A stretch of DNA of 64,000 nucleotides. It comes from Patescibacteria group bacterium (GTDB lineage: Bacteria > Patescibacteriota > UBA1384 > XYA2-FULL-43-10 > 1-14-0-10-43-13). The notes beneath the pieces are model-generated. The model was not told the DNA's origin, did not search any database, and saw nothing but the letters and a program-made list of their open reading frames with translations. Shown here piece after piece: positions 20,780 through 23,334 of this stretch. The stretch spans positions 479,234 through 543,233 of the forward strand of contig JBAZBD010000001.1 in the NCBI GenBank assembly GCA_041671645.1. Direction: 5' to 3'. The position numbers and the translations under genes were made by a program. Every line of letters starts with the position of its first letter. The stretch's first letter is position 1.

Positions 20780-22132
20780 ATGAAGCTATTTAATACACTT
20801 TCAAGCAAGAGTGAAGAGTTCAAACCGATCGATCCAGAAAAGGTGACACTCTACACCTGTGGGCCGACCGTATACGATGTGGCTCATATTGGCAATTTGC
20901 GTGCTCTATTGACCTATGACCTCTTGAAGCGGGCTTTGGCCGCAGAGGGCTACAATGTAGTACACGCGATGAACTTGACCGACATTGATGACAAGACAAT
21001 CAAGCGATCGGAGGGCGAGAAAGAGGCCTTCTCGAAGCTAATAAAGCTATATGAAGACCGAGTCTGGCAAGACGAAAAAGAGCTAAATATCATAAAGCCA
21101 AGTATCGTGACTAGGGCGACTGAGTATATAGACAAGATGGTAGTCTTTGTCGAGTCTTTAATTTCGAATGGTTATGCCTACAAGGCTGATGATGGCTCTG
21201 TCTATTTTTCAATTGATAAATTCAAAAACTATGGTCAATTGTCAAAGCTGGACAAAGAGGGAATCAAAAGTGGTGCTCGGGTAGCGCAGGATGATTACGA
21301 CAAGGAAAATCCGGCTGACTTCGTGCTTTGGAAGGCTTGGAGCGAGAAGGACGGCGAAATATTTTGGGAAACAAGTCTCGGCAAAGGTCGCCCAGGTTGG
21401 CACCTGGAGTGCTCGGTCATGGCAGGGGACGTATTGGGCAACACAATAGATATCCACGCTGGCGGAGTTGATTTGATCTTTCCTCATCATGAAAATGAAA
21501 TTGCGCAGTCGGAGGCCAAGACAGGCAAGAAGTTCGTCAATTTCTGGGTTCACAACGAGCATCTGATGGTCGACGGCAGGAAGATGAGCAAGAGCTTGAA
21601 TAATTTCTATACGCTAGACAATATTGTGGCAAAAGGTTTTTCCCCGTTAGATTTCCGTTATTTTGTGCTTGCCGCTCACTATCGTTCCAAATTGAATTTC
21701 ACCTGGGAAGGTTTGGAAGCGGCAAAAAACGCGAGAGAGCGATTGAATAGAGTTGCTTCGCAAATCAGTGGCGGAGAGGCGGAGGGGCAGAGAGACAAAA
21801 AATACCTAGATCGATTTAACGAAAAAATCTCTAACGATTTAAATACCCCAGAAGCGCTTGCAATTCTTTGGGAGCTGATGCGAGACGAAAATGTTTCTCA
21901 AGCAGACAAAAACGCAACAATCGCCGAAATGGACAAGGTTTTCGGTCTTGGCCTATTAGAAAATCAAACTTTCGAAATACCAGCAGAGGTGATTAAGATT
22001 GCCGAGGAACGAAAGACGGCACGTGAAGCCAAGGATTTCGCCAAATCAGATGAGCTAAGGGATCAAATTATCGAGGCAGGCTGGCAGATCGAAGATTTCC
22101 CAAATAATGAATATAAGATTATAAAAAAGTAA
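20780..22132 (+). CDS. cysS: Cysteinyl-tRNA synthetase
   Basis: CGPTVYDVAHIGN (HIGH motif), zinc-binding residues, KMSKSLNN. Confidence 0.95.
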   Translation: MKLFNTLSSKSEEFKPIDPEKVTLYTCGPTVYDVAHIGNLRALLTYDLLKRALAAEGYNVVHAMNLTDIDDKTIKRSEGEKEAFSKLIKLYEDRVWQDEKELNIIKPSIVTRATEYIDKMVVFVESLISNGYAYKADDGSVYFSIDKFKNYGQLSKLDKEGIKSGARVAQDDYDKENPADFVLWKAWSEKDGEIFWETSLGKGRPGWHLECSVMAGDVLGNTIDIHAGGVDLIFPHHENEIAQSEAKTGKKFVNFWVHNEHLMVDGRKMSKSLNNFYTLDNIVAKGFSPLDFRYFVLAAHYRSKLNFTWEGLEAAKNARERLNRVASQISGGEAEGQRDKKYLDRFNEKISNDLNTPEALAILWELMRDENVSQADKNATIAEMDKVFGLGLLENQTFEIPAEVIKIAEERKTAREAKDFAKSDELRDQIIEAGWQIEDFPNNEYKIIKK

Positions 22133-22136
22133 TGAC

Positions 22137-22310
22137 CCCATGGATTTAATATCCTTACCATGGGGCCAGGCTCTTTCACTTCGCCATTGAAGGCACTCAG
22201 GCTTCTGAACAACGGCCGTGGCCGAACCATCTGTCTATCTCGTAGACGATTGGCGCTGAGGGTGAATAGCCGCACGACGCGGGTCAATCCTGCCGACGAA
22301 GTGAGCAAAC
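22137..22310 (+). ncRNA. Candidate structured RNA / cis-regulatory element (GC-rich, long-range closing helix)
   Basis: Local GC ~57% against ~43% nearby. 8-bp hairpin CCCCATGG…CCATGGGG at 22137-22166. Closing helix TCACTTCG (22175-22182) pairs with CGAAGTGA (22296-22303), enclosing nested hairpins such as GGCC-GT-GGCC. No ORF with an RBS. Confidence 0.4.
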
Positions 22311-22329
22311 TATAGCACAAAAATACACG

Positions 22330-23334
22330 ATGCAAAATATTTGGCAAAAATTGGATAAGCCGATCAAAATATTGGCGCCGATGGCGGGATATACTGATTC
22401 GGCCTTTCGCCAGCTCTGTCGTGAGCTGGGCGCTGATTTGGTAATGACGGAATTGATTTCGGCCGATGCTATTTTCCACACAGCCAAACACTGGTTCAAG
22501 GATGAAAAAGGCGAGTGGCAATCAACTAAGGGCAAAGATGAAACTTTGCAGATGCTGAAATTCGCCCAAGAAGAGAGACCGATCATCATCCAGCTTTTTG
22601 GTAAATTCCCAGAGAAGTTTGCCTTTGCCGCCAAGTGGATTAGCGAAAACCTCAAGCCTGATGGGATTGATATTAATATGGGTTGCCCAGCGCGCAAAGT
22701 TGTCGGCAGCGACCATGGCGCTGCATTGCTCAAAAATCCAACCTTGGCTTGTGAAATTGTCCGAGCGGTCAAGGAAAATACTGACCTGCCGGTATCGGTC
22801 AAGACTAGACTTGGCTGGGGCGATGACGATCAAATACTCGAATTCGCGCCGGAATTGGTCAAGGCTGGAATTAGCGCCATCATGATCCACGGCCGCACGT
22901 ACAAAGACGGATTCAAGGGCAGGGCCAGATGGGATAATATTTTTGAGGTCAAGAAAATAGTGGGCGATAAATGCGTTGTCATTGGGAACGGAGACCTTGA
23001 TTCAATGTCGAGATCCCGTATCTCAAGCTTACAGTACGGGATGACAGACGGCGTTATTTTGGACGGATATTCTATCGGCCGTGCGGCGATAGGGAAGCCT
23101 TGGATTTTTTCTAACGACGAAATTACGCCAGAAATGTTGAAAAAGATAGCTCTCAGACACGCTAAATTGTCATTTGAGCGAAAAGGTGAGCACGGAATAG
23201 TCGAATTTCGTAAGCACTTATTGTTCTATTTGAAGGGTTTTCCAGGCGCAAAGGACTTGCGGAAGGAGGCAGTATCGATCGAATCCTATGACGATGTAGC
23301 GAAACTTTTGTCCAATTTGAGTGTAAACACTTGA
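22330..23334 (+). CDS. dus: tRNA-dihydrouridine synthase
   Basis: TIM-barrel FMN enzyme: LAPMAGYTD, DINMGCPARKV, KTRLGW. Confidence 0.9.
   Translation: MQNIWQKLDKPIKILAPMAGYTDSAFRQLCRELGADLVMTELISADAIFHTAKHWFKDEKGEWQSTKGKDETLQMLKFAQEERPIIIQLFGKFPEKFAFAAKWISENLKPDGIDINMGCPARKVVGSDHGAALLKNPTLACEIVRAVKENTDLPVSVKTRLGWGDDDQILEFAPELVKAGISAIMIHGRTYKDGFKGRARWDNIFEVKKIVGDKCVVIGNGDLDSMSRSRISSLQYGMTDGVILDGYSIGRAAIGKPWIFSNDEITPEMLKKIALRHAKLSFERKGEHGIVEFRKHLLFYLKGFPGAKDLRKEAVSIESYDDVAKLLSNLSVNT

Follow-up and report, generated by a model that had tools for sequence, protein, structure and literature searches.

A candidate minus-strand small RNA gene in the cysS-dus spacer of a Patescibacteria genome

The stretch of DNA analysed here (the window, 64,000 nt of a Patescibacteria genome) holds a GC-rich spacer of 197 nt (22133-22329) between cysS, encoding cysteinyl-tRNA synthetase, and dus, encoding tRNA dihydrouridine synthase. 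Promoter and terminator signals on the minus strand of this spacer, together with the same layout at this junction in relatives, suggest that it may contain a small RNA gene of its own, i.e. a candidate orphan RNA that would be antisense to the read-through mRNA of the two flanking genes; the chance that this gene is real appears to be about even. An earlier sequence-only reading of the same DNA had proposed a structured element closed by a long-range helix, which would act either as a cis-regulatory leader of dus or as a small RNA. The idea of a small RNA is the better supported of these, but it has to be moved to the minus strand (where the signals lie), and it now rests on those signals and the layout in relatives instead of on the closing-helix fold.

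Signals on the minus strand of the spacer

The signals themselves, their rarity in the genome, the layout in relatives and the conservation of the promoter stretch can all be seen directly in the sequence. The features of the predicted transcription unit, followed by the flanking genes, are listed below (positions of the window; basis in brackets).

22331..22336, minus strand: -35 hexamer TTTGCA, over dus codons 1-3 (ATG CAA A) (promoter scan, sequence)
22309..22317, minus strand: extended -10 TGcTATAGT (promoter scan; conserved with the relative L149)
near 22302, minus strand: predicted transcription start, ~7 nt past the -10 (inferred from the promoter)
22169..22302, minus strand: GC-rich body of the predicted RNA, with an 8-10 bp end-joining helix from the predicted 5' end; inner stems without statistical support (folds, repeat)
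22133..22168 (C1:501401-501366), minus strand: terminator-like hairpin (inverted repeat; script scan, minus strand only; folds)
22123..22132, minus strand: U-rich tail UUACUUUUUU adjoining the cysS stop (sequence; T-rich by the script's criterion at offset 0)
22123..22302, minus strand: predicted small RNA, ~180 nt (ends inferred from promoter and terminator signals)
20780..22132, plus strand: cysS, cysteinyl-tRNA synthetase, 450 aa (Pfam PF01406, E 2.7e-113)
22330..23334, plus strand: dus, tRNA dihydrouridine synthase, 334 aa (Pfam PF01207, E 1.1e-67)

The promoter-like site runs from 22336 to 22309 and consists of TTTGCA (4/6), 16 nt, TGc and TATAGT (5/6), so that by its sequence it has the form of a sigma-70 promoter with an extended -10. 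TG-extended sites of this quality are 3.4-fold enriched in the genome, where 208 are found versus 62 in reversed-sequence controls (0.114 vs 0.034 per kb of strand). At the other end of the unit, a G+C-rich stem is directly followed, on the minus strand, by a U-run (UUACUUUUUU); the script that looks for such hairpin-plus-U sites lists 196 genome-wide versus 55 in the controls. The U-run is provided by the end of cysS, the last codons of which (AAA AAG TAA, with a second in-frame stop TGA at 22133-22135) form an A-run that reads as a U-tract on the minus strand.

The arms of the hairpin (22133-22143 and 22158-22168, 11 nt each) are 91% complementary, with an 8-bp core (CCCCATGG/CCATGGGG). On the minus strand it comprises 11 pairs (one G.U and seven G-C among them) around a loop of 14 nt, whereas on the plus strand an A.C mismatch takes the place of the G.U pair and no U-tract follows. 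The hairpin without a U-tract that had been reported right after the cysS stop is therefore present, as seen from the plus strand. Its loop falls outside the 3-8 nt of the tool's consensus scan, which is why that scan lists no terminator here. On the plus strand, the tool and script scans both found no terminator-like site between cysS and dus, and the promoter scan found no strong promoter inside the spacer; a weak plus-strand promoter-like site is located at 22081-22108.

The long-range inverted repeat also exists: TCACTTCG (22176-22183) pairs with CGAAGTGA (22297-22304) at 8 of 8 positions, the coordinates given for it earlier being one base too low. By our own arithmetic, ~0.3 perfect 8-bp inverted repeats are expected by chance within ~200 nt. 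The nested multi-stem fold that was placed under this closing helix does not hold up, as the energy of the core is no better than that of shuffled sequence, and one of its hairpins (GGCC-GT-GGCC) would need an impossible 2-nt loop, the folds showing CGGC/GCCG with a 4-nt loop instead. The full 197-nt spacer folds at z-scores of -1.52 (plus strand) and -1.74 (minus strand), and the minus strand reaches -2.30 or -1.87 only when the terminator-like hairpin is included. It is on the minus strand only that G.U pairs lengthen the end-joining helix (8 pairs to 10) and the hairpin (8 pairs to 11). In the minus-strand minimum free energy fold ACCCUCAGC is unpaired, and in the fold of the plus strand the 25 nt immediately upstream of the dus ATG are unpaired.

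The cysS-dus junction in relatives

The window belongs to a 912-kb metagenome-assembled genome (MAG) of two contigs (95% complete, GC 44.8%, ~8% non-coding), the close relatives of which are MAGs labelled Candidatus Saccharibacteria or Patescibacteria. Within the order, 28 of the 29 relatives' loci have dus after cysS. The gap between them is below 40 nt in 14 loci, ~140-290 nt in four (L149, L154, L160, L167), 450-505 nt with an inserted open reading frame (ORF) in two (L156, L163), and 650-1320 nt in all seven loci of the sister family f4, where no ORF exceeds 110 aa (as checked in two of these loci); L168 contains Ns and was not assigned to a class. Two more loci came from a metagenome scan, L045 (similar to L154) and L046 (with a palindromic element). 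The junction is an insertion hot spot. In L033:4351-4852 and L156 (G011), the insert is a 118-aa ORF following a tandem array of a 'AAAGCATAAAGC'-like unit, and in L163 (G021) it is a different ORF, flanked by 'GTCATTCTGAG...' palindromes.

With the scripts already applied to the genome, the 12 ORF-free spacers of at least 100 nt (that of the window and those of 11 relatives) were surveyed for the same layout. A minus-strand promoter-like site is present in all 12 and is TG-extended in 10; one of the 12 sites scores 12/12 and another 11/12 against the consensus. Minus-strand terminator-like sites occur in 10 of the 12 spacers and plus-strand ones in one. The predicted RNAs of the relatives thus share locus and strand with that of the window, with the promoter close to the beginning of dus or on top of it and a terminator-like hairpin on the side of the cysS stop, but their bodies have no detectable sequence or structure in common with it. 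Their predicted lengths are ~70-125 nt in L149, L154/L045, L167 and L160, and ~0.45-1.2 kb in L169-L174 and L176.

The only significant similarity between the window spacer and those of the eight relatives compared is the promoter stretch of L149 (G003), which in the Dus tree is the nearest outgroup to the window genome and its sister species (node support 80/71). Out of eight pairwise spacer comparisons, window versus L149 is the only one to beat shuffles, and the match is exactly the extended -10 plus the start region (score 25 vs 15.4 +/- 2.1; reached by 1 of 500 shuffles). Since nothing but the promoter stretch matches, the constraint appears to be on the minus-strand promoter, and not on the RNA body. 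The presence of a spacer in L149 also led to rejection of the idea that the window spacer is a fresh insertion; two steps are needed whether the spacer was gained once and then lost in the sister species or was gained twice independently.

The short predicted RNAs of the relatives have some features of their own. L154 (G022, about the same as the metagenome locus L045:2363-2492), L167 (G015) and L160 (G032) share the -35 hexamer TTGACA, positioned across the dus start codon in L154 and L167, and the -35 of L149 is TTGGAA. L149, L154, L167 and L160 each have a 5' hairpin. It is followed by a single-stranded, C-rich stretch (ACCUUCCCACCCUCUUU in L154 and L167, CACCACCCACCC in L149) and, towards the cysS stop, by a terminator-like hairpin plus U-run (the stem in L154 being too short for the script criteria). 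The L045 version folds at z -2.84. A 7-mer, CACCCUC, is common to the window and the C-rich motif of L154/L167, but ~0.9 such matches are expected by chance and it was not used as evidence.

The longest spacers, those of f4, lie outside the window at L169:2549-3359(+), L170:183-1397(-), L171:854-1341(-), L172:843-1326(-), L173:729-1362(-), L174:194-1372(-) and L176:699-1392(-). They have 44-54% GC, with 50-58% in the predicted RNA stretches. A minus-strand promoter, TATTGACAAA-N17-TGCTA(A/G)TAT (TTGACA-17-TGCTAnTAT), is conserved in the alignment, most members have a strong terminator-like hairpin, and one 490-nt member folds at z -8.47. A helix at the 5' end shows apparent compensatory changes (as read from the sequences), and it is recovered by automatic alignment with three pairs changed on both sides. 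The predicted f4 spacer RNA has no Rfam match and is distinct from RNase P and tmRNA, both of which are located on other contigs in 5/5 genomes checked. These sequence features make the f4 spacer a candidate for a large structured RNA, 0.45-1.2 kb in length and of unknown class.

It could be imagined that the window element is a shrunken, fast-evolving member of an order-wide minus-strand cysS-dus RNA gene, in which the f4 form would stand for a class of large structured RNAs of ultra-small bacteria that is so far undescribed, with the 180-nt form of the window as its minimal version, but this extension is doubtful. Neither an nhmmer profile of the f4 5' domain nor the covariance model R2 matched the window element (R2 recovers other f4 members weakly, at 15.3, 12.5, 9.1 and 8.1 bits), and the MAFFT/RNAalifold alignments linking the two are too poor to use. 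Moreover, the large f4 forms fold far beyond chance (z -8.47 for L173), whereas the predicted RNA of the window does not (z -1.87).

Base composition, homologue searches and alternative explanations

The spacer is clearly GC-rich (57.3% in 22150-22299, 57.0% in 22169-22310), which bears out the compositional jump noticed before (57% over 22150-22310 versus 44.8% for the genome). At 12 points above the genome, 22169-22310 is in the 99th percentile of the genome's 142-nt windows, and by peak GC the spacer takes rank 13 among 214 non-coding segments of at least 120 nt. Six of the 12 segments that outrank it hold tRNAs, three are rRNA and three are unknown, so that most GC-rich non-coding islands here are RNA genes (9 of 12). 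A GC content of 57% is not rare in coding DNA, with 402 such 120-nt regions on contig 1, mostly within ORFs. Three non-coding segments outside the window (G000:C1:437732-438177, C1:382899-383391 and C1:1-938) have a peak GC at least as high as that of the spacer and match nothing in Rfam up to E 0.01; these are candidates for overlooked RNA genes, perhaps the missing signal recognition particle (SRP) RNA or rRNA insertions. In another 286-nt non-coding segment outside the window (G000:C1:635472-635757, peak GC 0.62), ARAGORN reports a 'tRNA-???'.

As for known RNA families, Rfam 15 gave no match at gathering thresholds across the whole window, and a search of 22120-22340 alone with E up to 10 gave at best Xoo1 (13.2 bits, cut-off 70) and HOTAIR_2 (10.9 bits). 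The failure to match SRP, 6S, tmRNA, RNase P or riboswitches by eye was thereby confirmed, the Rfam scan being empty at every threshold tried, and ARAGORN found no tRNA in the spacer. RNase P and tmRNA were discarded as identities, both being located elsewhere in the window genome. A divergent SRP or 6S RNA was rejected as well, since an essential RNA of this kind would not be lacking, as the element is, in the sister species and many relatives. SRP RNA (RF00169, RF01854) and 6S RNA (RF00013) were not detected in the window genome at E up to 10, and RF00169 was found in 0/23 genomes of the family (E up to 1) versus 13/14 control genomes in the same search, which suggests that the SRP RNA of the family is either very divergent or missed by the first pass of the search.

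One sequencing run is known to hold the spacer (groundwater metagenome DNA, the probable source run), and a second assembly of that run (a Logan contig, not independent data) covers it with 0 differences, so that the spacer is not an assembly join. Two further runs (X2, X3) covered short conserved pieces of dus only, and not the spacer.

Several observations speak against a small RNA gene at this position. The sister species, which is also the nearest relative (its CysS is 88% identical), has overlapping cysS and dus genes without any spacer, so that the unit is dispensable; it follows too that the 197-nt spacer is lineage-specific and has no orthologue from which covariation could be read. 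Its absence from orthologous intergenic regions had been named earlier as grounds for refuting the element, and as to sequence it is indeed absent from them. BLAST found no relative of it in 60 relatives, 22 other genomes of the family, 43 of the order and 161 of the class; a single-sequence covariance model gave one match at chance level (E 0.49) in 100 relatives; profiles made from the relatives' RNAs had no match in the body of the window's RNA; a phage collection yielded no match, a plasmid collection one 29-nt chance match (E 0.6), and a 20-mer pattern scan of viral contigs did not find the element. No RNA run is listed as holding the spacer sequence. The signals are imperfect too. The promoter matches only 9/12 of the consensus, and plain promoter-like sites have a density of 1.1 per kb of strand. 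The terminator is atypical, having a 14-nt loop and a U-run broken by AC, and hairpins with loops of 9-14 nt are enriched only to 41 vs 18 in the control, and those with stems of at least 11 pairs to 5 vs 3. Both signals were found after looking, which makes their joint improbability post hoc. The fold adds little, with z-scores of -0.55 (plus) and -0.93 (minus) for the 142-nt core compared with shuffles and -1.87 for the predicted minus-strand RNA, i.e. a stability that is not significant. Finally, the internal stem at 22235-22251 pairs better on the plus strand, which makes the strand asymmetry in G.U pairs a mixed one.

Much of this would also fit a spacer without any function, i.e. DNA that separated two once-overlapping genes and now just belongs to the dus message, as intercistronic or 5'-untranslated sequence. 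The hairpin would then be at most a 3' stabiliser of the cysS mRNA, and the minus-strand signals would have arisen by chance. The sequence is an orphan in every collection searched, it folds no better than shuffles, the sister species does without it, promoter-like sites are common, and the junction is variable (two family members with inserted ORFs, one relative with a palindromic element, many empty). Still, it is unusual for a 0.9-Mb genome with so little non-coding DNA to have a spacer this rich in GC. The TG-extended promoter and the hairpin with U-run are each rare, and they share a strand and are correctly ordered; conservation with L149 is confined to the promoter stretch, and the minus-strand layout recurs in 11 relatives. 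A spacer without function is the main rival explanation, possible but less likely than the RNA gene.

That the spacer is foreign or decayed DNA (a pseudogene fragment, the scar of a mobile element or a piece from a GC-richer organism) is unlikely, even if its GC excess over the genome, its absence from the sister species, the genes inserted at the same junction in other relatives and the two reading frames that are open across it all point that way. By our own arithmetic, two of six open frames are expected by chance at such GC. Pfam and three word-index searches found no protein relatives for the open frames, and HMMER against 1.84 billion proteins gave a single match, to a repetitive 3641-aa protein (39% identity over 28-aa stretches), which was dismissed as a repeat artefact; none of these searches turned up the pseudogene fragment with protein homology that had been considered earlier. 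Searches of its own genome (blastn, nhmmer) show the element to be single copy, and no further copy is among the matches listed in a six-frame tblastn of that genome (one frame). It has no terminal inverted repeats beyond short chance matches and no target duplication, and so lacks the marks of a miniature inverted-repeat transposable element (MITE). The searches of phages and plasmids were equally without result, and a local duplication of the flanks was rejected as the alignments to them are no better than those of shuffles.

Slightly less probable again, and improbable in its own right, is a plus-strand cis-regulatory leader of dus, riboswitch-like or binding a protein or tRNA, that would be closed by the 22176/22297 helix. 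Such an element would be well placed directly upstream of dus and probably within its mRNA, there being no plus-strand terminator, and it could draw on the weak promoter-like site at 22081-22108 and on the one internal stem that pairs better on this strand. No Rfam family matches it, however, the core does not fold beyond shuffles (z -0.55 on this strand), and no expression platform is apparent, as the 25 nt before the ATG are unpaired and neither a terminator nor a start-masking helix is formed. With no relative in 161 genomes of the class, no spacer in the nearest relative (others having overlapping genes or unrelated spacers) and no terminator before dus, the leader proposed earlier is not supported.

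A small protein is hardly credible. There is an ATG-initiated ORF of 51 codons on the plus strand (22160-22315, 51 aa) and a minus-strand frame that is open throughout, but neither start is preceded by a Shine-Dalgarno-like sequence, a richness in arginine is what translation of GC-rich non-coding DNA typically gives, the protein searches returned no homologue, and the minus-strand frame continues across the terminator hairpin into cysS in antisense. The cysS frame, too, remains open beyond the double stop TAA/TGA for 59 further codons on the plus strand, until TAG at 22313-22315; its translation has no relatives, and the open frame is probably a matter of chance at such GC.

Possible mode of action and comparison with known systems

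No plus-strand terminator separates cysS from dus, and in compact relatives overlap couples the two genes in translation, which suggests that dus is probably transcribed by read-through from cysS. If the minus-strand gene is real, its promoter, the -35 of which overlaps the dus start codon, would give rise to an RNA beginning near 22302 that would cross the GC-rich stretch and stop at the 11-bp hairpin (22168 to 22133) plus UUACUUUUUU. This small RNA would be fully complementary to the intercistronic part of the cysS-dus mRNA, and cis-antisense would then be its most likely mode, whereby pairing with the message, or transcriptional collision against it, may tune or uncouple the expression of dus. 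Production of the RNA, its ends and every step of its action are what we infer from the signals, and cis-antisense control of (or transcriptional interference with) dus is put forward with less confidence than the RNA gene itself. A role in trans, via the unpaired C-rich stretch, is possible as well.

Hardly any regulatory RNAs are known from Patescibacteria (the candidate phyla radiation). Full-text literature searches, as far as titles and abstracts go, returned no described RNA of the group's own and nothing relevant on large noncoding RNAs in the group or on antisense RNA at cysS or dus. If true, the present case would be a simple example of a tRNA-modification gene under antisense control in a genome of 0.9 Mb, and would imply that streamlined genomes, too, keep a small accessory RNA gene at one locus; if the spacer is merely filler, the finding is an ordinary one. 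An orphan antisense RNA would not surprise a specialist, and the f4 RNA candidate is the more striking observation. The wider pattern, in which the junction is, by lineage, empty or occupied by a predicted RNA of 70-180 nt or by a strongly folding one of 0.45-1.2 kb, may outweigh the copy in the window.

Dus is a flavoenzyme, for which reason a flavin mononucleotide (FMN) riboswitch was considered. The spacer resembles riboswitches and other Rfam leaders in its position upstream of a gene, its GC-richness and the helix that joins the ends of a multi-stem region, but it differs from them in having no Rfam match (E up to 10), no conservation in relatives and no expression platform. A closer parallel is GadY of Escherichia coli, a cis-encoded antisense small RNA opposite the gadX-gadW spacer. 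The two have no sequence or Rfam relationship, the Rfam model of GadY giving only a chance-level match, in the locus of a relative; moreover, the RNA of the window is a predicted one from the MAG of an uncultured Patescibacteria bacterium, with a promoter that lies across the start codon of the downstream gene. Like GadY, however, it is predicted to be the product of a short non-coding gene that has a sigma-70 promoter and an intrinsic terminator of its own, placed on the strand opposite a two-gene message and fully complementary to the spacer between the two genes.

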